Source of the DNA: Desulfobaccales bacterium
GTDB lineage: Bacteria; Desulfobacterota; Desulfobaccia; Desulfobaccales; 0-14-0-80-60-11
Direction: 5' to 3'
Length of the DNA stretch: 43,587 nt
Assembly: GCA_030694005.1 (NCBI GenBank)
Contig: JAUXZG010000224.1
Span: 1 to 43,587, forward strand
Part shown: positions 5,988 through 23,301 of the stretch, piece after piece
Numbering within the stretch: the first letter of the stretch is position 1
Layout of the letters: every line of letters begins with the position of its first letter
Made by a program: the position numbers and the translations under genes
Notes under the pieces: generated by a model
What the model was told of the DNA's origin: nothing
What the model saw: the letters and a program-made list of their open reading frames with translations, nothing else
The model's database searches: none

Positions 5988-6103
5988 TAAATATATTATA
6001 ATATTATGGAAGACTAATGTCGGATTTCCTGCCTATCTAAAAGCTTAAGAGAGAGAGACCCACCACGCCGACATAGCCCTTCCCCAATCTTTGGGCACTC
6101 GCT

Positions 6104-7777
6104 ATGGATGCAGATTGTGGGATATTGGTGGTAAGTCGCCACGGTAAGCTGTTGGCCGCCAACCCCATGGCGGAGTCCCTTCTCGCTCGCCCTCTGCCCT
6201 CCGGTAGTCTCCTGGAGGCCGATTGCTCGCTGACCCGTTCCCTCTCCCGGTATGGCCACCCCATCTGGGAAATGCTGAGTCGTGGGGAGGAAGAACACGG
6301 ACTGTTGCAGGTAGATGAGCTAACGGGAACCGGCATTTTTTACAGGTGCATCCCCCTTTTCAACGAGGAGAATATGGTCACGGGCACGGTCATCACCTTG
6401 GAAAGAAGGAGTGACAAAGCCCTGAGCCAGGCCCTTAATTTCCTGGGTCTGACCCCCGATGAGATCATGGACCAGATTCCGGAGGGGGTGTTTGTGGTAA
6501 ACACCCGGTGGCAACTCAGTTATTTTAACCACACCGCCCAGGAAATCACCGGGTATTCCCGGGACGAAGCCATGGGCAAGTTTTGCTGGGACATCTTCCG
6601 GACCGAGCTGTGTCACAAGAAATGCCCTATGCGCATCTCCATGAGCACCGGCCAGGCCCTGATGGACCAGGAAGTGGAAATCCTCACCAAATCGGGTCAA
6701 AAAAAATTGATCCTGCTTAATACCGCGCAGATCAAAAAGCCGGGCAACCGGGTGCTGGGAGGGGTGCAGACCTTTCGCGACCTGAGCGGCCTCCAGTACC
6801 CAGAGGAAGGGAAGGGTCGTGAGGTTATTGCAGACATCGTGGGGGTCAGTCCCCGGATGCAGGAAATTATCCAAAGCCTTCCCATCATTGCCGCCTCCGA
6901 CTCCAATGTGCTGATCCTGGGCGAGTCGGGAACCGGCAAAGAGCTCATCGCCCGGGCCATTCACCTGCTGAGCCCCAGGCGTAAAGGGCCCTTTCAGGCC
7001 ATCAATTGTTCGGCGATCCCGGAGACTTTACTGGAGTCCGAGCTTTTTGGCTACGAGCGGGGGGCTTTCACGGGGGCCGTGAGCAGCAAGGCGGGAAAGT
7101 TTGAGTTGGCCAAGGGCGGCACGCTATTTCTGGATGAGATCGGCGACCTCCGGCCGGAGCTCCAGGTGAAGCTGCTGAGGGTGTTGGAGGGTAGAGGCTT
7201 CGAGCGGGTGGGCGGCAATCGGAAAATCCCCCTGGAGGCCAGGATTGTTGCGGCCACCAATGTGGAACTGCAGGAAGCCATGCGACAGGGCCGGTTCCGG
7301 GACGACCTTTACTACCGGCTCTTCACCGTGCCCATCCACCTGCCGCCCCTGCGGGAAAAGCGGGAAGATATCCCCATCCTCGTCAAGTACTTCCTGGAAC
7401 AGCTCAACCAAAAATTTAACAAGAGAATCAGGGGGGTGGACCCCAAGGTGATGAAAATTTTCTGCCGCCACCCCTGGCCCGGCAATGTGCGGGAAATGCA
7501 GCATGTCTTGGAATACTGCTTCGTCTTTGCCAAGGGCCCCTTCATCACCGAGCGTCATCTGCCTCACCTGGAAAGCGCCTGGGCCGGCAGAGAACTGGAG
7601 TCGCTGGATAGTTCCCTCAGCCCCTTACAGGCACTAGAACGAGAAACCATCCTCAAGGCCCTGGAGCGCGTGTACGGCAGCAAGCACGAGGCGGCTCGGG
7701 TGCTGCAAATCAGCCGCAGCAAGCTGTGGAGAAAAATGCGGTCCTATGAGATCAGGGATGCTGAATTTAAAAAATGA
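6104..7777 (+). CDS. PAS-domain sigma54-dependent enhancer-binding activator (557 aa)
   Basis: PAS (FNHTAQEITGYS..E..GK.C), Walker A GESGTGKE, ESELFGYERGAFTGA, LFLDEIGD, WPGNVRE, Fis-type HTH AARVLQISRSKLWRKM; no receiver domain. Confidence 0.95.
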   Translation: MDADCGILVVSRHGKLLAANPMAESLLARPLPSGSLLEADCSLTRSLSRYGHPIWEMLSRGEEEHGLLQVDELTGTGIFYRCIPLFNEENMVTGTVITLERRSDKALSQALNFLGLTPDEIMDQIPEGVFVVNTRWQLSYFNHTAQEITGYSRDEAMGKFCWDIFRTELCHKKCPMRISMSTGQALMDQEVEILTKSGQKKLILLNTAQIKKPGNRVLGGVQTFRDLSGLQYPEEGKGREVIADIVGVSPRMQEIIQSLPIIAASDSNVLILGESGTGKELIARAIHLLSPRRKGPFQAINCSAIPETLLESELFGYERGAFTGAVSSKAGKFELAKGGTLFLDEIGDLRPELQVKLLRVLEGRGFERVGGNRKIPLEARIVAATNVELQEAMRQGRFRDDLYYRLFTVPIHLPPLREKREDIPILVKYFLEQLNQKFNKRIRGVDPKVMKIFCRHPWPGNVREMQHVLEYCFVFAKGPFITERHLPHLESAWAGRELESLDSSLSPLQALERETILKALERVYGSKHEAARVLQISRSKLWRKMRSYEIRDAEFKK

Positions 7778-8145: not shown

Positions 8146-8610
8146 GTGAGCGTATCTTTCGAAAAAATTGAAGCCATATTGGACCGTTTCCCGCCGCAGC
8201 CGGAACATCTGGTCAGCGCTTTCCAGGAGATCCAAGCCGAGTTCAAGTATATTCCCGCGGACGCCTTCAATGCGGTGTGCGATCACCTGGGGGTGCCTCG
8301 GTCGCAAGGCTGGGCGGTGGCCACCTTTTTCAAGTCTTTCAGTTTTGAGCCTAAGGGAATCCATGAGATCAAGGTCTGTCTGGGCACCGCCTGTCACCTT
8401 AAGGGCGGGGCCCGCCTGGTAGAGGGCCTGGAACGGGAACTGAAGGTGGAACGGGGCCATACCACCGGTGACTTACTCTTTACCTTGGATACGGTCAACT
8501 GTGTGGGAGCCTGCGCTCTGGCCCCGGTAGTGGTAGTGGGTGAAGAGTATCAAGCCAATACCAATTCCCGGAAGCTCAAAAAGCATCTGAAAAAGGTTGC
8601 GGCTGAGTAG
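8146..8610 (+). CDS. NuoE/HydC/BamG-like [2Fe-2S] subunit (154 aa)
   Basis: VATFF, VCLGTACHLKG, VNCVGACALAP; SD AAGGAG. Confidence 0.92.
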   Translation: MSVSFEKIEAILDRFPPQPEHLVSAFQEIQAEFKYIPADAFNAVCDHLGVPRSQGWAVATFFKSFSFEPKGIHEIKVCLGTACHLKGGARLVEGLERELKVERGHTTGDLLFTLDTVNCVGACALAPVVVVGEEYQANTNSRKLKKHLKKVAAE

Positions 8611-8634
8611 AACCCGCACACAAGGGGTGAGGTC

Positions 8635-10536
8635 ATGCGACAAATTAGCACTGCCTTAAAACTGGATGAAAATCGGCTCGCTTCCCCGGCGGCCCTGGCG
8701 GCCTATCGGGAAAGCATCCTGGCCGAGAGGGATCCCAACCGGCCCATCATCATTGTCTGCCACGGCACCGGCTGTCTGGCGACCAATAGCCCGAAAGTCG
8801 CCGACACCCTGCGCCGGGCCATCGCCGCGGCCGGGCTCCAAGCTCAGGTGGTCCCGGAGATCAAGACTACCGGCTGTCACGGCTTTTGCTCCCGGGGCCC
8901 CTTGGTGATTTTCCACCCCACCGGCTTATTCTACCAAAGAGTTCAGCCGGAGGATGTCGAGGAAATCGTCCAGACAACCCTCCTGGAAGGGAAGCCGGTG
9001 GAGCGTCTGCTCTACGTAGATCCGAACACCGGGGAGCACATCGTGCACGATCACGATATCCCCTTTTACAAATATCAGCAGCGTCTGGTGCTGCGGAACA
9101 TTGGCAAGATCGACCCGGCTGACATCCGGGACACCATTGCTGCGGGCGGTTACCAGTCCCTGGCCAAGGTCCTGGCCGGCATGACCCCGGAGGAAGTCAT
9201 TGCTGTGGTGGAGACCTCGGGGTTGCGCGGCCGGGGCGGCGGCGGCTTCCTGGCCGGACGGAAATGGCGCCTGGCCGTGGAAAATGTTCGAAAGAGCCCC
9301 GGGCCGGTCTACGTAGTGGGCAATGGCGACGAAGGGGACCCCGGAGCCTTCATGGACCGGACTCTGATGGAGGGCGATCCCCATGCCGTCCTGGAGGGGA
9401 TGATCATCGGCGCCTATGCCCTGGGCGCCCAACAGGGCTACATTTACGTGCGACTCGAATACCCCCTGGCCGTCCGGCACCTCTCGGTAGCCATCGAGCA
9501 GGCCCGGGCCCTGGGACTCCTGGGTCAAAACATCCTGGGCACGGGCTTTGATTTCGATATCAAGATCAACCGGGGCGCGGGGGCCTTTGTCTGCGGCGAA
9601 GAGACCGCCCTGATCGCCTCGCTGGAAGGGCGGGTGGGGGAACCCAAAACCAGGCCGCCCTATCCGGCTGAAAAGGGACTCTGGAACCGGCCCACCATCA
9701 TTAACAACGTGGAGACCTGGGGAAACGTCCCCCAGATCATCGAAAAGGGGGCCGATTGGTTTGCCGGCATGGGGGTGCCCCACAGCACCGGCACCAAGAT
9801 CTTTTCCCTGGTGGGCAAGGTTAACAATGTGGGTTTGGTGGAAGTGCCCATGGGCATCACCCTGGGTCGCATCGTCGAAGAGATCGGCGGCGGGGTGCCG
9901 GGCCGAGACGAGTTCAAGGCCGTCCAGACCGGCGGTCCCTCTGGAGGTTGTATCCCCTGGGAACTCAAAGATACCCCCGTGGACTTTGACTCCTTGACCC
10001 GAGTTGGATCGATGATGGGGTCGGGGGGCATGATCGTCATGGATAAACGGGACTGCATGGTGGATGTGGCCAAGTATTTCCTGGAATTTCTCATGGATGA
10101 ATCCTGTGGCAAGTGCGTTCCCTGTCGGATGGGGCTCGAGCGGATGCATGCCATGTTGGGAGAGTTTACCATGGGCAAGGGGAGCCTGGAGGACCTGGAC
10201 GAGCTTCACTCTCTGGCCGAAGGGATAAAGGACGGCTCCCTTTGCGCCCTGGGGGGGACCGCTCCTAATCCGGTGCTTTCCACTATCCGTTACTTCCGGG
10301 ATGAATATGAAGCCCATATTCTCCACAAGACCTGTCCCGGCAAGGTTTGCCGGGAATTGATCACTTATGCCATCAACTCGGAACTCTGTAACGGCTGTAC
10401 CCTTTGCGCCCGAGAATGTCCGGCGGGGGCGATTACCGGGGTGAAAAAGAAACCTCACGAAATCAACAGCTCTCTGTGTATCAAATGTGGCGTCTGCTTC
10501 GAGGTCTGCAAACCCGAAGCGGTGGAAATCTTGTAA
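8635..10536 (+). CDS. NuoF/HydB/BamH-like FMN- and NAD(H)-binding subunit with extra Fe-S domains (633 aa)
   Basis: N-terminal thioredoxin-like CHGTGC...CHGFC, GLRGRGGGGF, DEGDPGAFMDR, GAFVCGEETAL, GGPSGG, ESCGKCVPCR, C-terminal 2x[4Fe-4S]. Confidence 0.95.
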   Translation: MRQISTALKLDENRLASPAALAAYRESILAERDPNRPIIIVCHGTGCLATNSPKVADTLRRAIAAAGLQAQVVPEIKTTGCHGFCSRGPLVIFHPTGLFYQRVQPEDVEEIVQTTLLEGKPVERLLYVDPNTGEHIVHDHDIPFYKYQQRLVLRNIGKIDPADIRDTIAAGGYQSLAKVLAGMTPEEVIAVVETSGLRGRGGGGFLAGRKWRLAVENVRKSPGPVYVVGNGDEGDPGAFMDRTLMEGDPHAVLEGMIIGAYALGAQQGYIYVRLEYPLAVRHLSVAIEQARALGLLGQNILGTGFDFDIKINRGAGAFVCGEETALIASLEGRVGEPKTRPPYPAEKGLWNRPTIINNVETWGNVPQIIEKGADWFAGMGVPHSTGTKIFSLVGKVNNVGLVEVPMGITLGRIVEEIGGGVPGRDEFKAVQTGGPSGGCIPWELKDTPVDFDSLTRVGSMMGSGGMIVMDKRDCMVDVAKYFLEFLMDESCGKCVPCRMGLERMHAMLGEFTMGKGSLEDLDELHSLAEGIKDGSLCALGGTAPNPVLSTIRYFRDEYEAHILHKTCPGKVCRELITYAINSELCNGCTLCARECPAGAITGVKKKPHEINSSLCIKCGVCFEVCKPEAVEIL

Positions 10537-10550
10537 GGGGAGGGCGGGGC

Positions 10551-11123
10551 ATGATCAGCTTCACTATTAACGACCGGGAAGTAACAGGCCAAGAAGGCTG
10601 GACCATCCTGGAGGTGGCCAAGTGGCACGGCATCGACATCCCCACCCTCTGCTACCATGGCGCCGTGGAACCGTATGGCGCCTGCCGGCTCTGCGTGGTA
10701 GAGGTGGATGATGGGCAGCAGCGGCGGTTGGTAGCCTCCTGTCTCCATCCCGTTCAAGAAGGGCTCAAGGTGCAGACCGACAGCGAGCGGGTGAAAAACG
10801 TGCGCCGCTGGATTTTGCAAATGATGGTGGATGAACATCCCGGCTCCCAGAGAATCAAGGAGCTGGCCAAGTCCTATGGCGTGAAGGAATCCAGGTTTAA
10901 GAGTGATCGCGTTGAAGATTTGTGTATTTTATGCGGTCTCTGCGTCCGGGCCTGCGATGAGGTGGTGGGCGCGCGGGCCATCTCCCTCGGCAACCGGGGA
11001 GTGCGCAAAGAGGTGGCCACCACCCATCGTCTTCCCAGCCCGGAATGTGTTGCCTGTGGGACCTGCCTCTATGTCTGTCCCACGGGCGCGATGGAACAAT
11101 TATTCGACCGGATCAGGGGTTGA
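10551..11123 (+). CDS. Short NuoG/HydA-N-terminus/BamI-like Fe-S protein with no catalytic domain (190 aa)
   Basis: IPTLCYH...GACRLCVVE...ASC [2Fe-2S]; CILCGLCVRAC and CVACGTCLYVCP [4Fe-4S]; then stop. Start ATG 10551 after GGGAGG. Confidence 0.9.
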   Translation: MISFTINDREVTGQEGWTILEVAKWHGIDIPTLCYHGAVEPYGACRLCVVEVDDGQQRRLVASCLHPVQEGLKVQTDSERVKNVRRWILQMMVDEHPGSQRIKELAKSYGVKESRFKSDRVEDLCILCGLCVRACDEVVGARAISLGNRGVRKEVATTHRLPSPECVACGTCLYVCPTGAMEQLFDRIRG

Positions 11124-11168
11124 CCCTGAAAAATCCTGGTCGCGGCAGGCGTGAATAAGGAGAAGGAC

Positions 11169-13595
11169 ATGAAGAACAACGAAGCCAAAATCGGCGTTTT
11201 CCTTTGCGAGTGCGGCGGAAAAATCAGCAGCCGCATAGACCTGCCGGCGGTGGGCGAATTGCTCAAGTATGAACCCTGGGCGCATCTGGAGATTTCCCCT
11301 TACCCTTGCCTGGCCCCCGGTCTGGAAGCCATGCAGGCGAAGGTGCAGGAAAAGGGGCTCAACCGGATCCTGGTGGGCGGCTGTTCTTCCCGAGTGATGA
11401 AAAAGAAGTTCGCCGCGGCCCTGGCGCCGGTGGGGATCCACGAGTACCAGGTGGAGATGGTTAACTTAAAGGACCACGTGGCTGCCGTCCACGAAGACTC
11501 TCCGCAAAAGCTGGCCCGCAAGGCCGCGGCCCTCCTGGCCGGGGGAATGGCCGGGCTTCGGCTCCTGGAGCCTTACGAACCCGTCTCGGTACCCTTTCAG
11601 GGGCCGGTCCTCATCATGGGCGGCGGCATCTCCGGTTTCGCGGCGGCCCGGGAACTGGCCCGCAAGGGGATGGAGAGCCGGCTCTTTTCCCCCGCCCGGG
11701 ATCCAGGCCAGGTCCTGGCACAACTCCCGCGAACTTTTCCCGGCAGCCAGCTTTTCTCTAAAGAACTGACAGAACTCCTCCGGGAAGTGTTCACCAGCCC
11801 CCTGGTCAAGGTTTTACCTGACCTGCCGGTGGAATATGTGGTGGGACACGTGGGCGATTATCGCCTGGGGTTGCGCCAATCCGACGGCACGGTGACCGAG
11901 GTGACCGGCTCGGCCTTGATCCTGGCCCTGGATCGGGAGTTCGTCCCCGGAGATTACGAATATATCGGGGGCGGCGAGCGGGTGTGCGATCTGCTGGAGA
12001 TGGAGGAACGCCTGGCCCAGGGCGAAATTGAGGCCGGCAAAGTGGTCTTCTGGGTGAACAGCCCGGAACACGGTAAAGCCGCCCAGCAGTTCAACGCAGT
12101 GGCCGCCTGGCGGAACAGCCTGGTGCTGGCCCGGAATCATCCCCGGGTAAAACCCACCGTGCTTTACCCGGCCAACATTACCCTGCCGCTCAGCGGCGCC
12201 GACCTGGCGGAGGCGCGGGGGTGCGGCATTGCCCTGCAGTCTTACGCCCCGGAGGTCCACCCCGTGGTCCAGTCCGGATACCTGACTTACTTCAGCCCTC
12301 AAGACCATCTGGAGCACGAACTGGAATGGGACAATCTGGTGGTCTCCATGGTGCCGGGAGAGCCGGCGGCCAAAACCCAGGAACTGCTCCGGTGGCTGCC
12401 CGTGTACTCGGAAAACGGGGGCCGGCTCAGAAAAACGCAACTGAAACTCAAGCCCGATCAGGTGGCCGATGAGACCATTTTTCTGACGGGATCAGCCGGC
12501 GAACTTAAGGACCTGAACGAAGTCTTGAGACAGGGCAAGAAGGCGGCCCAAGGGGTGTTGCACCTCCAGGAAAAGGCCAAGAGGGGCGCCCTGGTGAGCC
12601 CGGTGGTGGTCACCATCGACCAGGACCTCTGTGAAGGCTGCGGCCTCTGCACCGAAATCTGTCCCTGCGGTGGAGTGGAGCACGTCAAACCCGGCAGCGG
12701 CCCGGTGCCGCGCCACGCGGACAGCCACCTCTGCAGCGGCGGCGGCACCTGTGCGGCCACTTGCCCTTACGAAGCCGTCAAGATGCTCAATAATACCGCC
12801 CAGCAACTGGAGGCGCGCCTCAAGGCGGTGCTCTCCCGGATGCAGGAAAATGAGGCGCTGGGGTTCATTTGCAGTTGGGGCGGCCTGGGCGCCGCGGATC
12901 TGGCCGGAGTTAAGGGGCTTTCCTACCCCCGCGGGGTATATCTAATCCCGGTGAACTGCCTGGGTTCCATTGATCCCGCCATCTTTTCCATGGCCTTTGT
13001 GAACGGGGCGAACAGCATCCTCCTGGGCGGCTGTACGCCCACGGCCTCCTGCCACTATGTCTACGGGGTGGATCATTCCTGGGTTCGGGTCAATATCATG
13101 AAAAAGCTCCTCTCCCTGGCCGGTCTGGAGCGGAGACGGATCACCATGGGATATGTGGACGTCAACCAGCCGGAGGCCTTTGTGCGCATGGTGGAGTCCC
13201 ACCTGGACGGGATGCATAAATTGGCCCCCATTAACCGGGACGAAAAAACCAAGACCAAACTCTGGGCCATCCATGCTACGCTCCACCGTCCCCGGGTGCG
13301 CTGGGTTTTGGGGACGAGTTTGAGAAGGCCCACCGAGAAGGAGTTTCCCGGCGAGCAAGTCAACGCCGTAGATGCCGATGAGACCATGCTGGACGTGCTC
13401 CGGGAGGAGTTTCTGGCCTCCAGAATCCTCAAGGCCATCCATGACCAACCTCTCAACCCGCCACAAATTGCCCAAAGCATGGATGAGCCGGTGAAGACAA
13501 TTACCCCCATGTTGACTGATATGGCCAAGGAGGGTCGGGTTACCATTAAGAGCTGGGAAGGCGGCTATCCCCTCTATGCTACCGGTAAGCCGTGA
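11169..13595 (+). CDS. HdrA-like / 2x[4Fe-4S] ferredoxin / MvhD(FlpD)-like / C-terminal winged-helix fusion (808 aa)
   Basis: IGVFLCECG...GGCSSR...EMVNLKDH (HdrA N-terminus), GGGISG, CEGCGLCTEICP and CSGGGTCAATCP, FICSW...ADLAG...VNCLG...GGC....SCHY (MvhD), HTH-like tail; SD AAGGAG. Confidence 0.85.
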   Translation: MKNNEAKIGVFLCECGGKISSRIDLPAVGELLKYEPWAHLEISPYPCLAPGLEAMQAKVQEKGLNRILVGGCSSRVMKKKFAAALAPVGIHEYQVEMVNLKDHVAAVHEDSPQKLARKAAALLAGGMAGLRLLEPYEPVSVPFQGPVLIMGGGISGFAAARELARKGMESRLFSPARDPGQVLAQLPRTFPGSQLFSKELTELLREVFTSPLVKVLPDLPVEYVVGHVGDYRLGLRQSDGTVTEVTGSALILALDREFVPGDYEYIGGGERVCDLLEMEERLAQGEIEAGKVVFWVNSPEHGKAAQQFNAVAAWRNSLVLARNHPRVKPTVLYPANITLPLSGADLAEARGCGIALQSYAPEVHPVVQSGYLTYFSPQDHLEHELEWDNLVVSMVPGEPAAKTQELLRWLPVYSENGGRLRKTQLKLKPDQVADETIFLTGSAGELKDLNEVLRQGKKAAQGVLHLQEKAKRGALVSPVVVTIDQDLCEGCGLCTEICPCGGVEHVKPGSGPVPRHADSHLCSGGGTCAATCPYEAVKMLNNTAQQLEARLKAVLSRMQENEALGFICSWGGLGAADLAGVKGLSYPRGVYLIPVNCLGSIDPAIFSMAFVNGANSILLGGCTPTASCHYVYGVDHSWVRVNIMKKLLSLAGLERRRITMGYVDVNQPEAFVRMVESHLDGMHKLAPINRDEKTKTKLWAIHATLHRPRVRWVLGTSLRRPTEKEFPGEQVNAVDADETMLDVLREEFLASRILKAIHDQPLNPPQIAQSMDEPVKTITPMLTDMAKEGRVTIKSWEGGYPLYATGKP

Positions 13596-13623
13596 TGATG
13601 GCGAGCAATACCGCAATAAATAT

Positions 13624-16146
13624 TCAAATTAACGACAGCCTCTCGTCGTAAATGAATTCCCGGGTATGCCTGGCAACCCTTTCCGGTTCCAGGTGAATCC
13701 TGGCGGTGCCGGTCTCCATGCCGGCCCGGGCCACCGCCTCGGCGACGGCCGGCGGCACCCTAAAATCCATAGCGCCCGGCAGGATATAACCGGGGCTCAA
13801 TTTATCGCCTACCAAATCGGCGATAGCGTGGGCCGCCGCCATATTCATGGCATCATTGATGGCTCTCGCCCGGATGTCCAGGGCGCCGCGAAAGATGCCG
13901 GGAAAGGCCAGACAGTTGTTCACTTGATTGGGGAAATCCGATCGGCCCGTGGCCACCACCGCCGCTCCGGCCATTTTCGCCTCGTCGGGGTGGATTTCCG
14001 GGTCAGGATTGGCCAGGGCAAAGACAATGGGGTCCTTAGCCATGGATTTCACCATTTTCTGGGTCAGCACGTTGGGCCCGGAGAGCCCGATAAAGACTTC
14101 CGCCCCCCTCAAGGCGTCCGCCAGGCTGCCCTTTTGCTTTTCAGCGTTGGTGATTTGCGCCAACTCTTTCTTGATGAAATTCATCCCCTTAAGACGCCCC
14201 TGGTAAATAACCCCGGTGGTATCGCAGATAATGATGTTTTGGGCGCCGGCCAGGAGCAAAAGTTTGGTCACGGCGATGGCGGACGCGCCGGCGCCGCTGA
14301 AGACAATCCTTACCTCTGCCAGTTTACGGTCCACGATCTTCAAGGCATTCATCAAGGCGGCCATGGCGACCACCGCAGTGCCGTGCTGATCGTCATGAAA
14401 TACCGGAATATCCAGGCGTTCGCCTAATTTTCGCTCAATTTCAAAACAACGGGGCGACGAGATATCCTCCAGGTTAATCCCGCCGAAGGCCGGAGAGATG
14501 TTTTCCACCAGTTTAACCACCAAATCGGTTTCCTGGGTACTGATGCAGATGGGAAAGGCTTCGACGCCCCCGAAGGTTTTAAACAGGACGGCTTTCCCCT
14601 CCATGACCGGCAGTGCCGCCCGGGGGCCGATATTCCCCAGGCCCAAAACCGCGCTGCCGTCGGTAACTATGGCCACCAGGTTATTTTTGCAGGTATAGTC
14701 ATAGGCCCCCATGGGGTCCTTAAGAATTTTCTGACAAACCTCGGCCACCGCCTCCGGGGAATAGAGCCGTTTATAAATGACTTCATCCTTGATGGGCACC
14801 TTGGTGTAAACCTGCACACACCCCTGATAGCGGCGATGCAGTTCCAGGGCTTCCTCGTTAAGGCTCATTTTGCCGTAATCCTGGCCTTCCGAGGGCAGCC
14901 AGGCCAGTTCTCCCTCGTAAATATATCTTTCCGTCCGCTCTTGAACTCTTTCCGGAGACATTTCTGCGGGAGTCAGTTGCGCCGCGCCGGTTTCCTGAGC
15001 CGCCTGGGCTACCGCTCTGGCCACCACCGGGGAGATTCTCCAGTCCATTTGCCGGGGAATAATATTGCTGGGAGACAATTCTTCTTCCGGAATCATGTCC
15101 GCCACGGCCCGGGCCGCGGCCAGGAACATCTCGATGTTGACCCTTTCCGCCCCCACATCCAGGCATCCCCGGAAAAATCCCGGAGTTACTAGAGATGAGC
15201 GTATCTGGTTTTCGCTGTCCGCCTGGCCGGTGGCCACCACTTTGGCGCCTCCGGCTTTGGCTTCGGCTTCGCTGATTTCCGGCTCCGGCAGAGCCAGGGC
15301 AAAGACGATGGGGTCTTTGGCCATACTGGCGACCATTTCCCCATTGACCAATCCTCCTGCGGACAGGCCGATAAAAACATCCGCGCCTTTTATGACCTCA
15401 GCCAGGCTGCCTCTGACGTCCCGGGGTTTAACCAGACGGGCGATTTCCGATTTGGCCCAATTCATTCCTACCAAGCGGTAAACGCGCAGCGCCCCATGCC
15501 GGTCGCAAAGGACAATATCTTCGATGCCCGCCACCAGCAGTCCTTTGGCCACCCCAATGCCGGCGGCGCCGGCGCCGTTGATGACTATCTTCACTTCGGT
15601 CAAGCTTTTCCCCACCACCTTGAGGGCGTTATATAGGGCAGCCAGCACAATTATGCCCGCGGCATGGTTTTCATGGTGCAGCACCGACACCCTCACCGCT
15701 TTCCTGATCCTGTTCTCAATAGTGAAGCATTTGGGGGCGGCAATACTTTCCAGACAAAATCCTCCAAAGGAAGGGGCGAGGGAACGGACAATTTCTACTA
15801 TCTCATCGGCATCTTGAGTCAGCAGCGCAATGGGCACGGCATCCACGTTGGCAAAAGTTTTATAGATAACCGACTTGGCTTCCAACTTGGGCAGGGCTGC
15901 TAAAGCCCCGATATTGCCAAATTCATAAACGCGACTGCCATCCGTGATCAGGGCAATGGAATTGCCCCGGCAGGTGTAGCGGTAGGAGGCGATGGGGTGC
16001 TTTTCGATCTCCCGGCAGACGGCCCCCACTCCGGGCGTGTAGATCCGACTCAACACGGACACATCCCTGATGGGCATCTTGCTTTTGATGCCAATTAAGC
16101 CGCGATAACGCCGCCGATAAGCTAAGGCGTCTGATTCGGTAACCAT
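13624..16146 (-). CDS. Tandem (two-domain) malic enzyme with degenerate N-terminal copy (840 aa)
   Basis: Two ~420-aa malic-enzyme repeats in one frame. C-terminal copy has VMEGKAVLFK, NLEDI, HDDQHGTA, GAGASA, NQVNN. Start ATG 16146 after GAGGT. Confidence 0.92.
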   Translation of the reverse strand: MVTESDALAYRRRYRGLIGIKSKMPIRDVSVLSRIYTPGVGAVCREIEKHPIASYRYTCRGNSIALITDGSRVYEFGNIGALAALPKLEAKSVIYKTFANVDAVPIALLTQDADEIVEIVRSLAPSFGGFCLESIAAPKCFTIENRIRKAVRVSVLHHENHAAGIIVLAALYNALKVVGKSLTEVKIVINGAGAAGIGVAKGLLVAGIEDIVLCDRHGALRVYRLVGMNWAKSEIARLVKPRDVRGSLAEVIKGADVFIGLSAGGLVNGEMVASMAKDPIVFALALPEPEISEAEAKAGGAKVVATGQADSENQIRSSLVTPGFFRGCLDVGAERVNIEMFLAAARAVADMIPEEELSPSNIIPRQMDWRISPVVARAVAQAAQETGAAQLTPAEMSPERVQERTERYIYEGELAWLPSEGQDYGKMSLNEEALELHRRYQGCVQVYTKVPIKDEVIYKRLYSPEAVAEVCQKILKDPMGAYDYTCKNNLVAIVTDGSAVLGLGNIGPRAALPVMEGKAVLFKTFGGVEAFPICISTQETDLVVKLVENISPAFGGINLEDISSPRCFEIERKLGERLDIPVFHDDQHGTAVVAMAALMNALKIVDRKLAEVRIVFSGAGASAIAVTKLLLLAGAQNIIICDTTGVIYQGRLKGMNFIKKELAQITNAEKQKGSLADALRGAEVFIGLSGPNVLTQKMVKSMAKDPIVFALANPDPEIHPDEAKMAGAAVVATGRSDFPNQVNNCLAFPGIFRGALDIRARAINDAMNMAAAHAIADLVGDKLSPGYILPGAMDFRVPPAVAEAVARAGMETGTARIHLEPERVARHTREFIYDERLSLI

Positions 16147-16315
16147 TTCTGCTATACCTCGAAAGGCTAAAGGTAGCTTATTTGTCTCCTGACTTGGCCC
16201 CGGGTCCAGGAAAATGATGGTCGCGTCGGAAAACCGGCCCGGACCCTGCTGGTTGAGGCGACCGTGGTCCTTACCCCACCTTACGCGGGTACCATTGACC
16301 ATCCCGTGACATTTT

Positions 16316-16342
16316 AAGGGTTCATGTAGGGCTTGAACCCTT
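16316..16342. promoter_or_regulatory. Perfect 9-bp inverted repeat (terminator, attenuator or operator)
   Basis: AAGGGTTCA-N9-TGAACCCTT flanked by T runs. Confidence 0.35.
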
Positions 16343-16658
16343 TTGGATTAAGATATTAACCCTTTACTTTCTGGAATACAATCCTTCAGCTTCCGTCTCC
16401 AGGCATAACAGCCGAAATAAAGACGCCGTAAGGTTAAATTATGTTAATAGCCTGATGAACTTAAGTCTGGCCTGCAGAGCAGACTTCCCTCTTGACTCGG
16501 ACCTTCACCTGGGGGCATGTTTTTGTTTCTTCTATTTAGGCAGGTCTCCTTTTGGGCCCCCTCCCGAGCTTTGATAACCAAAATGAATATCAATTTCAAA
16601 ATATTATACTACTTGACCCCGCCGCCGGTGGCCTGATTCTCTTTCGTAGACGCCAATA

Positions 16659-16674
16659 AGCAAGGCGTCGGCCA
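16659..16674 (-). promoter_or_regulatory. Candidate sigma54 promoter facing the malic enzyme gene
   Basis: Minus strand TGGCCGACGCCTTGCT, GG-N10-GC; about 500 bp from the start codon. Confidence 0.45.
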
Positions 16675-17006
16675 ATTCTGCTTGGCAAAATATTCAGCCT
16701 CATGAATCAGCGAGGTGAGCCTCTAATCCATGACCCGAGGAAAACCATGGGGATAAAACCCAGCGGCCTAGTTCTTGCTTAAATCATTAAAAATCTATAT
16801 AAGTTAACCTTAATGAAAATTAGATTTAGGCTCTTTAAGCGGGGATGGCAGATGGGGGGATCCCCACAAAATGATTGAGCCACCTACACGGTTCAGATAC
16901 ACTGTCAAGGCAATGGCTACCTTTCCCCTGGGGCGGCAGCTATCAGCGTGATGGCTTGCTTTTAGATGAGAATCCCTTAAGTAAAAGAATTGGCTAACGA
17001 GAGACT

Positions 17007-18338
17007 GTGACTACCGCAAAAATGTTGGAAGAAAAAATTCTGTCACGTCGGGCCTTGATCGGCATCATCGGTCTGGGCTATGTCGGTCTGCCGATAGTCC
17101 TCCGCTTTGCTCAGCAGGGCTTTACCGTCCTTGGGTTTGATACCGACCCTCAAAAAGTAGCAGCCCTCAATTCTGGAAAATCCTATATCCAGCATATTCC
17201 CAGCGACCGGATCGCCGCGCTGCGCCCGCCGGCGTCGGTGGACCCAAAGTTTGAAGCCACCAGCGACCTGAGGCGCCTTAAGGAACCGGACGCCTTGCTG
17301 ATCTGCGTGCCAACCCCGCTCAACCGCCATCGGGAACCGGACCTTAACTACCTGGTGCAGACCACCAGAGACATTACCCAGACCTTAAGGGTGGGTCAAC
17401 TGGTTTCTTTAGAGTCCACCACCTACCCCGGCACTACCGAAGAGGTCATGTTGCCCCTGCTTAAGGCCACTAACTTGAAAGTAGGGGAAGATTTCTTCCT
17501 AATTTATTCGCCAGAGCGGGAGGACCCAGGCAATCCCACCTATAATGTTTTTAACATCCCTAAAGTGGTAGGGGGCATCACCGAAACGTGCTCCCGCCTG
17601 GGGGAGATCCTTTACGGCCAGATCGTGGAACAGGTGGTCCCGGTATCCTCCACCCAGGTAGCGGAGATGACCAAGCTCCTGGAAAACATCTACCGGGCAG
17701 TGAATATTGCCCTGGTAAATGAACTCAAGGTTCTGTGCCTGCGCATGAATATGGATATCAACGAAGTTATCAACGCGGCCAAGACCAAGCCTTTCGGATT
17801 CCAGGCTTTTTATCCCGGGCCGGGGTTAGGGGGGCATTGTATCCCCATAGATCCATTTTATTTGACCTGGAAAGCCCGGGAGTATGATTTCAGCACGCGC
17901 TTAATTGAACTGGCCGGCGAGATCAACACCCACATGCCTTATTTTGTCATCGAACGAACCGTCCAGGCCCTCAACGACCGCGGCCAGCCCATTAAAGGGA
18001 CCCGGGTATTGGTAATCGGCGTTGCTTATAAGAAAGATGTTGATGACTTGCGGGAATCCCCCAGTTTAAAACTGATTGACTTGTTGCTCCAGAGGGGGGC
18101 GCGGGTGGACTATCATGATCCTTATATTCCGGTAATGCCGCGCACCCGGCGCCATCAATTTGATATGCGGTCCGTACCCCTTACTCCAGAAAATCTGGCC
18201 ACCTATAGCGCCGTAATTATTGCCACCGACCATTCCTGTCTGGACTACCAAAGCCTAGCCACTCATGCTCCCTTAATCATAGACACCCGCTATGCTATCC
18301 CAGGCAGGAGCTATGCCGAGAAAGTGATAAGGGCCTGA
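17007..18338 (+). CDS. wbpA: UDP-N-acetylglucosamine 6-dehydrogenase (WbpA/WecC family)
   Basis: GLGYVGLP, LESTTYPGTT, SPEREDPGN, GPGLGGHCIPIDP, YKKDVDDLRESP; start GTG 17007 or ATG 17022. Confidence 0.88.
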   Translation: MTTAKMLEEKILSRRALIGIIGLGYVGLPIVLRFAQQGFTVLGFDTDPQKVAALNSGKSYIQHIPSDRIAALRPPASVDPKFEATSDLRRLKEPDALLICVPTPLNRHREPDLNYLVQTTRDITQTLRVGQLVSLESTTYPGTTEEVMLPLLKATNLKVGEDFFLIYSPEREDPGNPTYNVFNIPKVVGGITETCSRLGEILYGQIVEQVVPVSSTQVAEMTKLLENIYRAVNIALVNELKVLCLRMNMDINEVINAAKTKPFGFQAFYPGPGLGGHCIPIDPFYLTWKAREYDFSTRLIELAGEINTHMPYFVIERTVQALNDRGQPIKGTRVLVIGVAYKKDVDDLRESPSLKLIDLLLQRGARVDYHDPYIPVMPRTRRHQFDMRSVPLTPENLATYSAVIIATDHSCLDYQSLATHAPLIIDTRYAIPGRSYAEKVIRA

Positions 18339-18340
18339 TC

Positions 18341-18600
18341 ATCAAGACAGCCCCCAAACCGCGGGTCGGGATAGGGTCCATCCGCCAGGATCTCCTGGAA
18401 GTTTGCTTGATAAGGCATTTTGCCAGGGGCCTGTGGTGGTCCCAGCAAACCGCTTTGGCCGATGCTTCTAAGATTAGCGTCGGCGTCCAACTCTGCAACA
18501 AAATCTCAGAAGTCCTGGCTAACCTGGAAATTGACGCCGCCGTCAGGGCCGCTGGCGCCGGCCCTTGCGACGCTGGTTCAAAAGGCTCTGCGGATTAGGC
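18341..18600 (+). pseudogene. Possible decayed fragment of a Gfo/Idh/MocA (WbpB-like) oxidoreductase
   Basis: Broken frames give PRVGIG..., SEVLANLEIDAAV and LATLVQKAL, resembling the family N-terminus; lies where wbpB is expected. Confidence 0.3.
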
Positions 18601-18734
18601 TATTCGGCCTCTCAAAGCGAGGGAAGGGGTGCCGGCGGGCTTGAATTGAGCCCTCGGTGACAAGGCCACCTCAGTGGTTTAGGTTGGGGAAGGAATTAGG
18701 CGCGCTTATTATTCGTGCTAAAAGGAAATTAAAC

Positions 18735-19991
18735 ATGATTGTTGACGCGGTATATGATGAGGGCCTGATCAGATTAGCTCCAGAGATCCGCATTAAAGAA
18801 ACCAGGTTTCCGGTTAAGGTGATGATCCCCAATGAATTTCTGGTTTCCGAGCCCTCCCCGAAAACCAAGGAGACTATTGACTTCATTGACCTAAAAGCTC
18901 AACAACAGGCTATCCTCCCTTCCCTGTGCGAGCGCCTTCAACGAGTTTTGTCCCATGGGCAGTACATCATGGGTCCTGAAATCGGAGAGTTGGAGGACCG
19001 GCTAGCCGCCTATGTGGGAGTCAAACATGCCGTTTCCTGTTCGTCCGGCACCGATGCGCTGCTTATGACCCTGATGGCTTATGGAGTTGGACCTGGGGAC
19101 GCCGTCTTTACCACCCCCTTTACTTTCATTGCCACCGCCGAGGTCATCCAACTCTTGGGAGCCACGCCGGTCTTTGTGGATATTGACCCGCAAACTTTCA
19201 ACCTTGATCCGCAGGCCCTAACCGAGACCATCATTGGCCTCAGGAAAAATCCCCTTACCTCTTCTCTTAGACCTAAGGGGATCATCCCGGTTGACCTGTT
19301 CGGCCAGCCTGCAGACTACGATGGGATTAAGGCCACCGCCCAGGAGCACGGCCTGTTCGTCCTCGAAGATGCCGCCCAATCTTTTGGGGCTACCTATAAA
19401 GGGCGCCGGGCCTGCTCTCTAACTGAGGTCGCGGCCACCTCTTTCTTTCCCGCCAAACCCCTGGGATGCTACGGTGACGGGGGAGCTATTTTTACTGATG
19501 ACGATCAGCTGGCCGAGGTTCTAAAATCTATCCGCATACATGGTCAGGGAACCCATCGATACCTGAATGTGCGTCTCGGCCTTAACGGCCGCTTCGATAC
19601 CATACAAGCGGCTATTTTACTGGCTAAGCTGGAAGTCTTTGATAGGGAAGTCCTGGCCCGCCAGGAGGTGGCCCGGCGTTATAGTGAAGCCCTTAAGGGC
19701 GCGGTTGCAGTTCCCTATGTAGCCCCTCAATGCGCCTCGGTCTGGGCCCAGTATTCCGTACTCAGTGACCGGCGAGAGGTCCTGCAACAGAAACTGAAGG
19801 AGGCCGGAATTCCCACGGCAGTCTATTATCCCTTACCCCTTCATCTCCAAGACGCCTTCGCCCACTTGGGACATAAGCCAGGCGATTTTCCCATCAGTGA
19901 AGACGCGGCGGCGCGCATCTTCAGTTTGCCGATGCACCCATATCTAAGTGCCGCCCAGCAAGAGAGGATTATTGAGATATTACTGAGTTAA
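18735..19991 (+). CDS. DegT/DnrJ/EryC1 (WbpE-like) aminotransferase with ~47-aa N-terminal extension (418 aa)
   Basis: FIDLKAQ, SSGTDAL, TFIATAE, EDAAQSFG, SFFPAKPLGCYGDGG (PLP Lys); start ATG 18735 after AAGGA. Confidence 0.9.
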   Translation: MIVDAVYDEGLIRLAPEIRIKETRFPVKVMIPNEFLVSEPSPKTKETIDFIDLKAQQQAILPSLCERLQRVLSHGQYIMGPEIGELEDRLAAYVGVKHAVSCSSGTDALLMTLMAYGVGPGDAVFTTPFTFIATAEVIQLLGATPVFVDIDPQTFNLDPQALTETIIGLRKNPLTSSLRPKGIIPVDLFGQPADYDGIKATAQEHGLFVLEDAAQSFGATYKGRRACSLTEVAATSFFPAKPLGCYGDGGAIFTDDDQLAEVLKSIRIHGQGTHRYLNVRLGLNGRFDTIQAAILLAKLEVFDREVLARQEVARRYSEALKGAVAVPYVAPQCASVWAQYSVLSDRREVLQQKLKEAGIPTAVYYPLPLHLQDAFAHLGHKPGDFPISEDAAARIFSLPMHPYLSAAQQERIIEILLS

Positions 19992-20372
19992 GATCCTTGG
20001 AACATTTTGCCGGCTTCAACACTTAAGCCAATCTTTCCTTAGAAGCCCACCCCTCCCTGCAATGTCTCTCTTTCCTCCATATCCCGTCCTCTTGGCACAA
20101 AGACTTAATAATCAAATTCTGTGTCCGGAGAATCTGATTCACCTCAAAAATATTTGCTAGATTAATTTACCTCAGGTCGCCGCAAGAATTTATTCCAGGT
20201 GGCCGGGGTAATACGGGATTATTCTGGCCGGATAAGACCGCTGGGAGAGGGTGGTGGCGGTAAAAACCGAATTCTCTGAGCGCGCCGCCGCACAAAATCT
20301 TCTTAAAGATCTGCCGGCCGGCGGCAAACCTTAATCTCGGAGGGTCAGATGTTTGGAAGGGTATTGGGGCGG

Positions 20373-22283
20373 CTAGTCTTTCTTATCATCTAAGTATTGA
20401 TAATGTCTATAGTTTGGGATGATCAATCTAAACTTGTCTATCAGGCCCTGGCTGTCGCGATTGTCAACCAGGGCTTGGATGTCGCGCAGATGGGCCTCCC
20501 AGACCTCAATGTCTTCCTGAGGACCCATGGCGCAACTGAGCATGGGGTGCGCTGTGGGGCGAGGCTCTTCATCATCATTGAACAACTCCTCATAAAGTTT
20601 TTCCCCCGGTCGCAGGCCGGTGTAAATGATGGGAACGTCCTCGCCCGGAGTTCTGCGAGCCAGCATGATGAGTTTCTCAGCCAGCTCGCGGATTTTAACG
20701 AGGCGCCCCATTTTAAATACGAAAATGTCCCCCCCCTGCCCCATACAGGCTGCTTGGAGAACCAGCTGCACCGCTTCCGGAATAGTCATGAAAAACCGCT
20801 CAATCTCTGGGTGAGTTACGGTTAAGGGCCCCCCTTGGGCAAGTTGTTCCTTGAATATAGGGATAACACTGCCCGCACTTCCCAAAACGTTGCCAAAGCG
20901 CGTGGTCAGAAATCTGGTGGCGCTATGGTTATTAGAGGCCTGAACATATTTTTCGGCAATGCGTTTACTCACTCCCATAATGCTGGTGGGGTTAACGGCC
21001 TTGTCGGTGGAGATCATCACGAAACACTCGGAGGCGGCGGATAACGCGGCTTTCACCAATTTTCGGGTGCCCAGGATATTGTTATAAGCCGCCTCTACCG
21101 GGTAGCGCTCCATGAGCGGGACATGTTTGTAAGCCGCGGCATGGAAAATTACCTGGGGACGATAATGCTGGAACAAGATTTCCAGACCGGGACCATCGTT
21201 GATGCTGGCCACCAAAGCATGCAGGTCTAATTCCGGAAATCGCCGCCTTAAAGACATCTCGGTCTCGTAAAGGCTATTCTCTGCCCTTTCCAACAGCACC
21301 AGGGATCGAGGTTGATAATTGGCCACCTGCCGGCAGAGTTCAGAACCGATGGAACCGCCGCCGCCGGTAACCAGGATCACCCGATCCCTGATAAAATCTG
21401 CAATTTGCTCCCTCTCAATGTAAATGGGGGGACGGGCTAAGAGGTCCTCAAGCTCGATGTCCCGGGCATCGGCCAGACGGAAATGGCCCCCCAATACTTC
21501 GCTTATGGAGGGGATGATCTTGACCTTTACCTGCCAGCGTTTGCACTCCTCAATGATCTCGTTTAGTTGGTCCTGGGGAGCATCGGGCCAGGCAAAGATA
21601 ATCTCTTGAACCCGGTAACGATCTAATGCTTTGGCAATCTGTCGGAGGCCGATAATAGGGGTATCGTAAACCCGATAACCGCGGAACTGGGCATCAGGGT
21701 CTACCACTATGACGGGGAGAAAGGTGTTTCCGTGGCTTACCATCTCCCGCAGCAAAGGCTCCGTGGCTTCCATGGGGCCAACCAGCATGACTCGGAGGGC
21801 TCTGGGTTTTTCGGCCAGCAATTTGGCCCTTTCTCGAATATGCCGCACCATGAAGCGACAACCGCCGGTAAAGACCACCACCAAGAGCCAATCCAGGACA
21901 TAGATGGAACGGGGAATGGTCCCCAGGTAGCGACTAAAGAAAAAATCCATGATGGTCAGAAGGATGAGGCTCATCAAGGTGGCCCGCAGGATGTTTTGCA
22001 GGTCTGCGAAACTGACGTAGCGCCACAAGCCCCGGTAAAGATCGTGATATAGGAAAAGAAGTCCCTGAATTATCAGAACCATGGGTAGAGTTCTGATCAT
22101 GGTTCGGAAATGGGTCTGAGGGATTGAGCCTTCGAAGCGCAAGTAGTAAGAGCCCCAATAAGCCAGGGCCAGTAAACTTAACTGAAAGAACACCAAAAAT
22201 GGCCACCGGTGGGCCATAAAACGGTCCAGCCACCGTGCAAAAAGGGGATTCTTCCAAACCGAGGCCAAGGATCTGATTAACAT
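20373..22283 (-). CDS. Membrane-anchored UDP-GlcNAc 4,6-dehydratase (PglF/WbpM/CapD family, 636 aa)
   Basis: N-terminal TM helices, LYRGLWRY, IELEDLLAR, VTGGGGSIGSEL, HAAAYKHVP, STDKAVNPT, RFGNVLGS, GLRPGEKLYEEL. Confidence 0.93.
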   Translation of the reverse strand: MLIRSLASVWKNPLFARWLDRFMAHRWPFLVFFQLSLLALAYWGSYYLRFEGSIPQTHFRTMIRTLPMVLIIQGLLFLYHDLYRGLWRYVSFADLQNILRATLMSLILLTIMDFFFSRYLGTIPRSIYVLDWLLVVVFTGGCRFMVRHIRERAKLLAEKPRALRVMLVGPMEATEPLLREMVSHGNTFLPVIVVDPDAQFRGYRVYDTPIIGLRQIAKALDRYRVQEIIFAWPDAPQDQLNEIIEECKRWQVKVKIIPSISEVLGGHFRLADARDIELEDLLARPPIYIEREQIADFIRDRVILVTGGGGSIGSELCRQVANYQPRSLVLLERAENSLYETEMSLRRRFPELDLHALVASINDGPGLEILFQHYRPQVIFHAAAYKHVPLMERYPVEAAYNNILGTRKLVKAALSAASECFVMISTDKAVNPTSIMGVSKRIAEKYVQASNNHSATRFLTTRFGNVLGSAGSVIPIFKEQLAQGGPLTVTHPEIERFFMTIPEAVQLVLQAACMGQGGDIFVFKMGRLVKIRELAEKLIMLARRTPGEDVPIIYTGLRPGEKLYEELFNDDEEPRPTAHPMLSCAMGPQEDIEVWEAHLRDIQALVDNRDSQGLIDKFRLIIPNYRHYQYLDDKKD

Positions 22284-23284: not shown

Positions 23285-23301
23285 AAGGCCTTTAGGGGGG
23301 T

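Follow-up and report, generated by a model that had tools for sequence, protein, structure and literature searches.

Domain architecture of a tandem malic enzyme

The stretch of DNA analyzed here (hereafter the window: 43,587 nucleotides, positions 1 to 43,587 of contig JAUXZG010000224.1, assembly GCA_030694005.1) comes from a Desulfobaccales bacterium and encodes, on the reverse strand at 13624..16146, a protein of 840 amino acids (aa) plus a stop codon in which two malic enzyme (ME) modules are joined in a single chain. The gene was delineated from its open reading frame (ORF), its translation and Pfam matches. The enclosing ORF (13624..16302, reverse strand) is open for 892 aa, the frame running on for 52 codons 5' of the likely start; the ATG at 16146 was chosen as it has a GAGG 10 nt upstream and yields a product inside the 812-858 aa range of the homologues. 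Pfam detects two copies each of the malic (PF00390) and Malic_M (PF03949) domains (E values 7.8e-42 and 1.7e-41), arranged in the order typical of the malic enzyme family, in which the malic domain precedes the Rossmann domain that binds NAD(P). Each half matches the single-module ME profile over positions 3-390, and residues 1-426 (16146-14869) align end to end with residues 427-840 (14868-13627) at 46% identity (E 3e-138). The duplicated Pfam pairs, this self-alignment and a confident AlphaFold2 model with a predicted template modeling score (pTM) of 0.92 bear out the single-chain pseudo-dimer proposed by a first-pass annotation made from the sequence alone. The protein is hence one 840-aa chain and not a homodimer of identical chains of ~380-440 aa. 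It is also distinct from the hybrid MaeB enzymes, as that annotation had held: a Pfam search of the 840-aa protein for the PTA domain (PF01515) gave no match, so that the C-terminal PTA-like domain of the hybrids is missing, and the NCBIfam hybrid NADP-ME model PRK12861 scored 665.8 against a cut-off of 1178, covering profile positions 21-426 of 764, i.e. the ME part alone.

All features of the protein are encoded on the reverse strand. Module 1 (residues 1-426; 14869..16146), a putative remodeled ME-like pseudo-subunit, has PDB entry 5cee as its best structural match (E 8e-98) and begins with an N-terminal arm (15997..16146) bearing a canonical YTPGV motif (16041-16027; Tyr36 codon 16039-16041). 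Further along it shows LESI in place of LEDI (15742..15753), with E133 retained and the Asp replaced by Ser134; HHENHAAG in place of HDDQHGTA (15655..15678), with the two Asp replaced by H158 and E159; a GAGAAG dinucleotide-binding motif (15559..15576); and NQIRS in place of NQVNN (15196..15210), with the two Asn replaced by R316 and S317. A linker (residues 411-430; 14857..14916) leads into module 2 (residues 427-840; 13627..14868), a canonical catalytic ME by its motifs and likewise closest to 5cee (E 5.5e-126). Its N-terminal arm (14719..14868) carries a drifted YSPEAV motif (14763-14746; Tyr462 codon 14761-14763), followed by the metal-ligand motif NLEDI (14461..14475), HDDQHGTA (14374..14397; present in 194/194 tandems), a GAGASA dinucleotide motif (14278..14295) identical to that of MaeB, and the substrate/nicotinamide motif NQVNN (13915..13929). 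Re-translation recovered in place every one of the five module 1 motifs reported previously, as well as the intact core ligands and drifted arm reported for module 2. This two-module motif pattern is far beyond chance and recurs in 194 aligned tandem proteins; the rows of this alignment overlap between sources and share phylogeny, and counts over them are not independent.

Spread and age of the fusion

Among the 120 entries listed of 8000 word-index protein matches, the close homologues are 812-858 aa long, with 79-100% identity and 96-100% query coverage. In their sources they are named 'malate dehydrogenase (oxaloacetate-decarboxylating)' or 'NAD(P)-dependent malic enzyme', i.e. as ordinary MEs, and the named metagenome-assembled genomes include Desulfobaccales and Syntrophobacterales. 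When one genome per species was scanned, 146 relatives emerged, the best 80 of which were kept. Most of these bear the titles Desulfobaccales, Desulfobacca or 'delta proteobacterium' (73-87% identity), and those titled Nitrospirae, Nitrospinota or unclassified bacteria show 53-58% identity. Within the order itself, 69 of the 83 species genomes gave a match (46 of the 58 that are of high quality), as did 15 of 17 genera. No canonical single-module small ME surfaced in this survey of 83 genomes, which gave only two 34%-identical matches in 604-aa frames, and no other ME domain was found in the genome of the window, which is 94.7% complete. The tandem form is thus the sole ME match found in most genomes of the Desulfobaccales/Desulfobacca-titled order.

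These data bear directly on the possibility that two neighboring ME genes were joined artificially by misassembly or read-through, which has next to no probability. A single open frame crosses the module junction; an uninterrupted full-length match (from residues 1-5 to residues 839-840) is present in 57/83 genomes of the order, as counted from the survey table; and the 120 listed clusters, from several sources, share the same length. Near-identical DNA was also recovered in groundwater-metagenome runs of three studies, with contigs (X1, which covers the whole stretch, X2, X5 and X8) that span the junction at 14868/14869 and are free of indels in the coding region. Misassembly and read-through are ruled out by the homologue lengths, the order survey and the junction-spanning contigs, and the concern that the fusion might be unique to this assembly is thereby laid to rest. 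RNA runs numbered 0 among the 22 runs listed with matching DNA, a count that has no bearing on expression. The remaining matches in the order are broken by contig ends or, in four genomes (G016, G040, G051 and G077), by frameshifts or stops. In these four the tandem ME lies in pieces, and all but G077 are few-contig assemblies; the copies may be pseudogenes, or the breaks may come from indel errors in long reads. The break in G040 is at residue 460, away from the module boundary.

The history of the duplication was examined with a tree of 71 ME modules (IQ-TREE quick search, LG+G4). The 10 module 1 sequences of full tandems form one clade, with 94.7 support in the Shimodaira-Hasegawa-like approximate likelihood ratio test (SH-aLRT). 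Forcing module 2 together with the C-modules of short relatives (see below) gave a likelihood above that of the free search, with a p value of 0.877 in the approximately unbiased test (p-AU). A constrained tree uniting the four module 1 and four module 2 sequences of the Desulfobaccales-type rows in a single clade had a log likelihood lower by 98; it was rejected (p-AU 0.005), and with it a duplication within the Desulfobaccales-type lineage. The duplication therefore took place before the Desulfobaccales-type and Nitrospirae-type tandems diverged.

Divergent fates of the two modules

To describe the divergence of the modules we used 44 ME positions that are each conserved in at least 95% of 100 single-module MEs; these were drawn from a representative, all-against-all search that gave 11,895 matches, of which the best 150 were listed, and one of the 44 columns, opposite residue 466, is an insert-state artefact. 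Module 2 is canonical at 42/44 of these near-universal positions and module 1 at 32/44. The 12 changes in module 1 involve the LGLG loop (Y74, E75), EGK (K87, A90), LEDI (S134), HDDQHGTA (H158, E159, A162, G164, with A154 adjoining it on the upstream side) and NQVNN (R316), and in 7/12 the new residue reaches a conservation of at least 90%. Taken as catalytic signatures, module 1 reads YKESHEGGLRS and module 2 YKEDDDGGNNN.

Passages of the study of MaeB by Harding et al. (2021, PMC7902834) provide a reference for these residues. They give E149, D174 (which coordinates K107), K107 and Y52 as catalytic residues, 207-GAGASA-212 as the nucleotide motif, K250 and R242 (the latter neutralizing D233) as determinants of NADP use, and N300 and V330 as nicotinamide contacts. 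Mapped by offset, Y52 would correspond to Y462 in module 2 and Y36 in module 1, K107 to K518 and K91, E149 to E560 and E133, D174 to D585 and H158, D233 to D642 and D215, R242 to R651 and R224, K250 to K659 and K232, N300 to N713 and L286, and V330 to V742 and I315. Across 184 family members, from which all the following frequencies are taken, module 2 Y462, K518, E560, D561, D585, D586, N713, N743 and N744 are each found in 184/184, so that module 2, on this mapping, carries the complete set of catalytic Tyr, Lys, Glu and Asp together with the Asn pair. It is probably NADP-dependent because of its R651/K659 pattern.

Module 1 alone does not hold the catalytic and ligand set of an active ME. 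On the same offset mapping it is thus without the Lys-positioning Asp, one metal-ligand Asp, the nicotinamide-contacting Asn and the Asn pair. Its position 134 is Ser in 126, Gly in 55 and Ala in 3 of the 184 proteins, and H158, present in 164/184, is otherwise T, N or Q. Other parts of the module are close to invariant: Y36, P38, G39 and V40 of the arm, K87, K91, E133 and E159 are all 184/184, R316 is 181/184 and S317 183/184. The nucleotide-binding residues G191, G193, D215, R224 and K232 are likewise 184/184, and G196 is 183/184, a pattern by which module 1 is predicted to retain the adenosine/2'-phosphate end of an NADP-type pocket intact.

The two modules are equally constrained. Over 193 tandems, module 1 has a mean identity of 0.802 to the window protein and module 2 one of 0.805, and the median ratio of nonsynonymous to synonymous substitution (Nei-Gojobori dN/dS) is 0.170 and 0.183, respectively (1420/2485 pairs with synonymous distance dS <1.5, from 71 DNA sequences). 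Module 1 is therefore not decaying: its identity and dN/dS are on par with those of module 2, and its changed residues are themselves conserved, as purifying selection on the substitutions would have it. The first-pass annotation had spoken of reciprocal degeneration that left a dead site in repeat 1; the loss of canonical ligands stands, with 12/44 positions changed, whereas 'dead' goes further than this loss and the dN/dS ratio contradicts the idea that the repeat is degenerating. It is probable, judging from the residues, that module 1 no longer decarboxylates malate.

The same conservation could instead mean that both modules are catalytic, with module 1 performing an altered chemistry or using another substrate (e.g. 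a metal-poor or differently metallated 2-hydroxy-acid or oxaloacetate reaction) by means of K91, E133, E159 and Tyr462, all four of which are present in 184/184 members. This would agree with the retained GxGxxG motif and the NADP-type R224 and K232, with the fixation of changed pocket residues such as K87 and R316, with a dN/dS equal to that of module 2, and with the tandems of other lineages, whose module 1 keeps the Glu, the Asp and the second Asp. The replacements themselves are hard to reconcile with such a site: the Lys-coordinating Asp (MaeB D174) has given way to His, Thr, Asn or Gln, the metal-ligand Asp to a variable Ser, Gly or Ala unable to ligate a metal, and the nicotinamide Asn (MaeB N300) to Leu, and both Asn of NQVNN are gone. 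Moreover, ME-derived oxaloacetate decarboxylases require Mg2+ or Mn2+, as stated in parts of a review of prokaryotic MEs (PMC8100219). We accordingly regard a second working site of this kind as quite unlikely.

Structural models and the crossed tyrosine arms

An AlphaFold2 model of the 840-aa protein, built from an alignment of 54 tandems, has a mean predicted local distance difference test score (pLDDT) of 92.8, and its pTM of 0.92 reflects confident packing of the two modules within the chain. The two arms have pLDDT values of 78-96; confidence within the model is lowest in the linker, at 74-75. Foldseek searches with the model recovered single ME chains only, the best query-normalized template modeling score being 0.47, and no solved chain covers both halves.

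Superposition with VIA-align separates the known MEs into two groups according to the part of the model on which they fall. The 17 small and hybrid MEs align to model residues 425-432 through 809-838, i.e. to module 2 with its own arm, with Z scores of 43-54; the small MEs do so with Z scores of 44-54 and a root-mean-square deviation of 1.1-2.1 over 372-409 residues. In contrast, all large MEs (31/31), whose catalytic Tyr is supplied in cis, align over a model range beginning at 10-23 and ending at 836-837, with 334-382 residues aligned and Z scores of 30-40. As ~380 residues are aligned over a span of ~815, the body of module 1 must be mostly skipped, and in the model the module 1 arm reads as sitting relative to the module 2 body in the way that the cis Tyr segment does in the large MEs. 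Residue 97 of 1gz3_A lies opposite model residue 22, which places Tyr36 near residue 111 of ME2. This adjoins Tyr112, which we take to be the catalytic Tyr of ME2. A second model, of the 727-aa short relative P0132 (pLDDT 87.6, pTM 0.88, alignment of 19 sequences), shows the same split, with the small MEs on 298-305 through 683-723 and the large MEs on 27-30 through 711-727. A crossed N-terminal arm that would give the partner its catalytic Tyr is thus present in both predicted structures, as read from the ends of the aligned ranges.

In MaeB and the small prokaryotic MEs, as parts of PMC7902834 describe, both protomers contribute to the active site and the catalytic Y52 comes from the opposing monomer, so that the premise of a Tyr donated by the partner subunit, on which the first-pass annotation had built, is in print. 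Conservation of the arms in the tandems runs crosswise to that of the bodies. YTPGV is present on the module 1 arm in 192/194 tandems, and its Tyr in 193/194; the module 2 arm in the 194 tandems has Y-[A/S]-P, then variable residues and a one-residue insertion. Identity of the body to the single-ME consensus is higher in module 2 (0.54-0.68 versus 0.48-0.58 in 11 tandems), whereas a 15-column window around the Tyr is more canonical in module 1 in 6/7 tandems shown (0.53-0.80 versus 0.27-0.40), P0122 being tied. Over the whole arm of the window protein, consensus identity is a tie (0.40 versus 0.41). The geometry of the models, this crosswise conservation and the natural variants described below support the earlier proposal that the arm of repeat 1 serves the site of repeat 2, and Tyr36 of module 1 very probably completes the module 2 site in trans.

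The opposite assignment would hold if chains paired homotypically, module 2 with module 2' and module 1 with module 1', so that Tyr462 of a second chain completes the module 2 site and Tyr36 serves module 1 only. Such pairing would account for the invariance of Tyr462, and a single-chain AlphaFold run is blind to it. However, the canonical P-G-V after the Tyr is found only on the module 1 arm, the module 2 arm having its insertion and variable residues; the large MEs align to the module 1 arm plus the module 2 body; the intra-chain packing is confident (pTM 0.92, linker pLDDT 74-75); and in both the short forms and the reversed fusion P0135 discussed below, the only arm Tyr is that of the degenerate module. 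These features make homotypic pairing very improbable.

Natural variants of the tandem architecture

Many relatives of 600-730 aa among the same best 150 of 11,895 matches have an N-module that has lost the Rossmann domain while retaining the arm, the N-domain and the terminal helices. These stub-type MEs (P0125, P0128-P0133, P0138, P0140, P0144, P0149, P0150, P0153, P0160 and P0227) are a diverse set with a YTPGV arm, in each of which Pfam detects one ME only. Their C-modules nest within the module 2 clade of the 71-module tree. In the Rossmann-less forms with a complete C-module the C-arm Tyr is lost in 17/18, being replaced by F, L, S, A, H, N, K, I or C (the exception is P0125), and in those with the N-arm present the N-arm Tyr is kept in 15/16 (the exception is P0144). 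Therefore, the sole Tyr available in the Rossmann-less forms is that of the N-module. Their C-module nevertheless retains the K, E, D, D, D, N, N, N set. Full tandems keep the C-arm Tyr in 11/12. All these counts leave out P0123 (an N-truncated fragment), P0154 (C-truncated) and P0135 (reversed order). The remaining full tandem, P0122 (860 aa), lacks both arm Tyr, which are changed to S and A, and its module 2 has QN for NN, a combination not explained by the arrangement proposed here. A search of genomes with P0140 gave 13 loci, with matches of ~0.9-1.3 kb and one shorter.

P0135 (848 aa, including a 78-aa N-terminal extension) shows the reversed order, with the canonical module first. Its N-module has the NLEDI, HDDQHGTA, GAGAAG and NQINN motifs in the body and an arm without the Tyr, and its C-module has lost the ED, DD and GxGxxG motifs and bears a perfect YTPGV arm. 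In the tree its N- and C-modules are joined, with weak support (53), away from those of the other tandems, and P0135 therefore looks like an independent fusion; in its motifs it is a mirror image of the tandem family. Its cluster has 4 members, including P0304 and P0305, one of which was seen on 35 contigs; a search for further relatives returned its own cluster only.

The short forms and P0135, whose degenerate module likewise lacks GxGxxG, might be taken to indicate that module 1 is purely structural, serving as dimer partner and Tyr donor with idle pockets, and that its conservation stems from folding and interface constraints. The short forms do manage with the arm, N-domain and terminal helices alone, and a donor and scaffold therefore suffice in those lineages. 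The family of the window protein behaves otherwise: its module 1 keeps the Rossmann fold, GxGxxG, D215, R224 and K232 without variation and is as constrained as the catalytic module, and Tyr462, which would be aimed at the module 1 pocket, is invariant here and lost in 17/18 of the pocket-less forms. A purely structural module 1 is hence unlikely. As Tyr462 is kept together with a full module 1 pocket and lost where the pocket is gone, we consider it likely that the pocket is still in use. The prediction accompanying the first-pass annotation, that only the repeat 1 Tyr matters, may accordingly hold for malate turnover and perhaps not for the role of the module 1 pocket.

Tandems from other lineages (L069, L071, L072, L074 and L084, titled Nitrospirae, Nitrospinota and others) have a far less changed module 1, with the signature YKEDNDGGVNT, as in L069, or YREDNDGGNNS; by their residues they may still have two working sites. 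Another architecture seen in the searches comprises MEs of ~475-485 aa (P0311, P0313-P0318) with matches to ACT domains (PF13291, PF01842), a different appended small-molecule-binding domain.

A single-chain heterodimer with a candidate regulatory pseudo-subunit

From the architecture, the conservation patterns and the geometry of the models we infer that the protein is a single-chain heterodimer that arose by ancient duplication and fusion, in which module 2 provides a live site completed by Tyr36 and module 1 is an obligatory partner with a candidate effector- or nucleotide-binding pocket; we give this reading a probability of about two in three. The two modules would pack like the subunits of small prokaryotic MEs, with their N-terminal arms crossed. 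Module 2 would hold the one complete malate-decarboxylating site, into which the module 1 arm would insert Tyr36, and module 1 would be held under strong selection by its roles in the arm, the interface and Tyr donation. Tyr462 would in turn be received by module 1, in which the NADP-type dinucleotide pocket is joined to a conserved, remodeled and more basic substrate pocket (K87, R316, H158). By binding NADP(H) or some other effector, this pocket might modulate module 2 by way of the crossed arms. The conservation of GxGxxG, D215, R224 and K232 and of the remodeled pocket is compatible with the idea of a regulatory pseudo-subunit, and we place the chance that the pocket senses an effector or nucleotide, rather than being a second ME site, at slightly under even.

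Several observations weigh against this reading. Tyr462 is invariant and therefore has a selected role, which the proposed heterodimer explains only by assuming that the module 1 pocket is still in use. Lys91, Glu133 and the carboxylate at 159 may leave room in module 1 for residual or altered catalysis. The geometry was read from the first and last VIA-align residues only, a monomer prediction can pair the halves only within one chain, and for every family member the basis is sequence and predicted models. Among the natural variants, loss of the Rossmann domain and loss of the C-arm Tyr represent ~3 independent changes each, giving 1-3 independent pairs, for which a sign test is powerless, and P0135 is a single 90% cluster. 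The notion of one live and one silent site may fail for the class as a whole, module 1 being less changed in other lineages. Finally, dS is near saturation for many of the pairs, and the groups compared in the approximately unbiased test were chosen after inspection of the tree.

Comparison with known systems helps to define what is distinctive about the tandem MEs. Small prokaryotic MEs (PDB 5CEE, 1VL6/2HAE, 2A9F, 1WW8/2DVM) have the same fold and length as each module, and form crossed-arm dimers with active sites from both protomers, according to passages of PMC7902834. They are homodimers with two equal sites, whereas in the tandem the subunits are fused and diverged, with one full catalytic set. 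The ME module of MaeB is of the same type as those of the tandem, with GAGASA and equivalents of the NADP determinants R242 and K250, and both proteins are chains of ~760-840 aa in which a non-catalytic enzyme homologue is appended to an ME. In MaeB it is a PTA-like domain that confers control by acetyl-CoA, as reported in parts of PMC7902834 and PMC12704298. In the tandem, PTA is absent and the appended part is the N-terminal ME module, which would also be partner subunit and Tyr donor and whose regulatory role is conjectural. In the large MEs (eukaryotic-type, SfcA/ME1-3) the catalytic residues adopt the same pose as in MaeB, as described in PMC7902834 in the passages on this point. These enzymes superpose on the N-module arm plus C-module body of our models, and the tandem would therefore re-create a Tyr on the same polypeptide. 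The large MEs differ in showing only 25-30% identity and in taking the Tyr from their own domain set rather than from a duplicated module, and their tetramerization domain appears to be absent from the tandem, by analogy with MaeB.

A working analogue for module 1, though not a relative, is human IDH3, whose alpha-gamma and alpha-beta heterodimers pair paralogous catalytic and regulatory subunits; citrate and ADP activate the alpha-gamma heterodimer allosterically, as described in parts of PMC5241874 and PMC6827300. IDH3 differs from the tandem in having an unrelated fold and separate polypeptides, and effector binding is experimental in IDH3 and only surmised for module 1. The plant mitochondrial NAD-ME resembles the tandem in consisting of two diverged paralogous subunits; these are of the large type, are encoded by separate genes and, as far as is known, both keep the catalytic residues.

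The forms of prokaryotic ME described in parts of a 2020 review (PMC8100219) are small homodimers, large tetramers and PTA hybrids, divided into two groups with the PTA fusions in group 1. The searchable full-text literature, a body that leaves subscription journals and supplements outside its scope, yielded no account of an ME that is tandem, fused or pseudo-dimeric; the word 'tandem' occurs 0 times in this review and in a 2025 paper on MaeB (PMC12704298). The ME family and the trans-Tyr principle are known; what appears to be new to the literature is the asymmetric single-chain architecture, together with its spread and its deletion series. We tentatively propose that the tandem MEs could form a fourth structural class beside the small, large and PTA-hybrid enzymes, in which one of the duplicated subunits now acts within the chain as a regulatory pseudo-enzyme that senses NADP(H) or another ADP-containing or carboxylate metabolite and signals through the crossed Tyr arms, much as the PTA domain does in MaeB. 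The stepwise series of two near-complete sites, one remodeled site and a Rossmann-less, arm-donating stub would then record the conversion of an obligate homodimer into a monomeric enzyme.

ME acts at the pyruvate/malate node of central metabolism, and a module 1 that truly functions as a sensor would be a new regulatory solution for this enzyme. The tandem ME is further a natural test of the trans-tyrosine mechanism, since its two non-equivalent arms are separately mutable, which is impossible in a homodimer, and a clear case of a homodimer turned into an asymmetric single chain with a putative pseudo-enzyme half. Annotation pipelines and metabolic models should count one active site per 840 aa, and not two.

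Genomic context

The tandem ME gene stands alone in the window. Downstream and convergent with it is a row of four genes (8146-13595, forward strand) for a NuoE-like 2Fe-2S protein, a NuoF-like FMN/4Fe-4S protein, a 2Fe-2S/4Fe-4S ferredoxin-like protein and an 814-aa HdrA/MvhD-like protein with an MvhD/FlpD domain and 4Fe-4S motifs; together they resemble an electron-transfer module of the NAD(P)H-linked Flx/Hdr type that converges on the ME gene. An LptD-like gene and a PAS/sigma-54 activator lie further along on this side, at 3241-7777. Upstream, a gap of 860 bp (16147-17006) separates the ME start from the divergent UDP-glucose/GDP-mannose dehydrogenase gene; beyond it a nucleotide-sugar/polysaccharide cluster (17007-24187) runs in the opposite direction to the ME gene, with a UDP-glucose dehydrogenase family protein, a DegT aminotransferase, a Polysacc_synt_2 protein and a methyltransferase. 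The gap contains no ORF of more than 51 aa, Rfam gave no match over 13000-17500, and promoter and terminator scans around the ME gene gave no signal above shuffles.

A search for a conserved operon, in which five neighbors (NuoF-like, Fer2, HdrA/MvhD-like, UDP-glucose dehydrogenase and DegT) were compared by tblastn with 80 related loci, found none of them at E 1e-5; the ME control matched. Elsewhere in the genome of the window, phosphoenolpyruvate carboxylase was searched for and not found, and a carboxyltransferase of the pyruvate-carboxylase/oxaloacetate-decarboxylase type and a gene of the Ldh/Mdh family are present. In five related loci that were viewed, the flanking genes are mutually unrelated except for CBS-pair proteins in 2/5. 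Directly upstream of the tandem ME, these loci include a beta-class carbonic anhydrase (L006:2806-3585) and the two CBS-pair proteins (L029:3233-3889 and L039:3354-3836).

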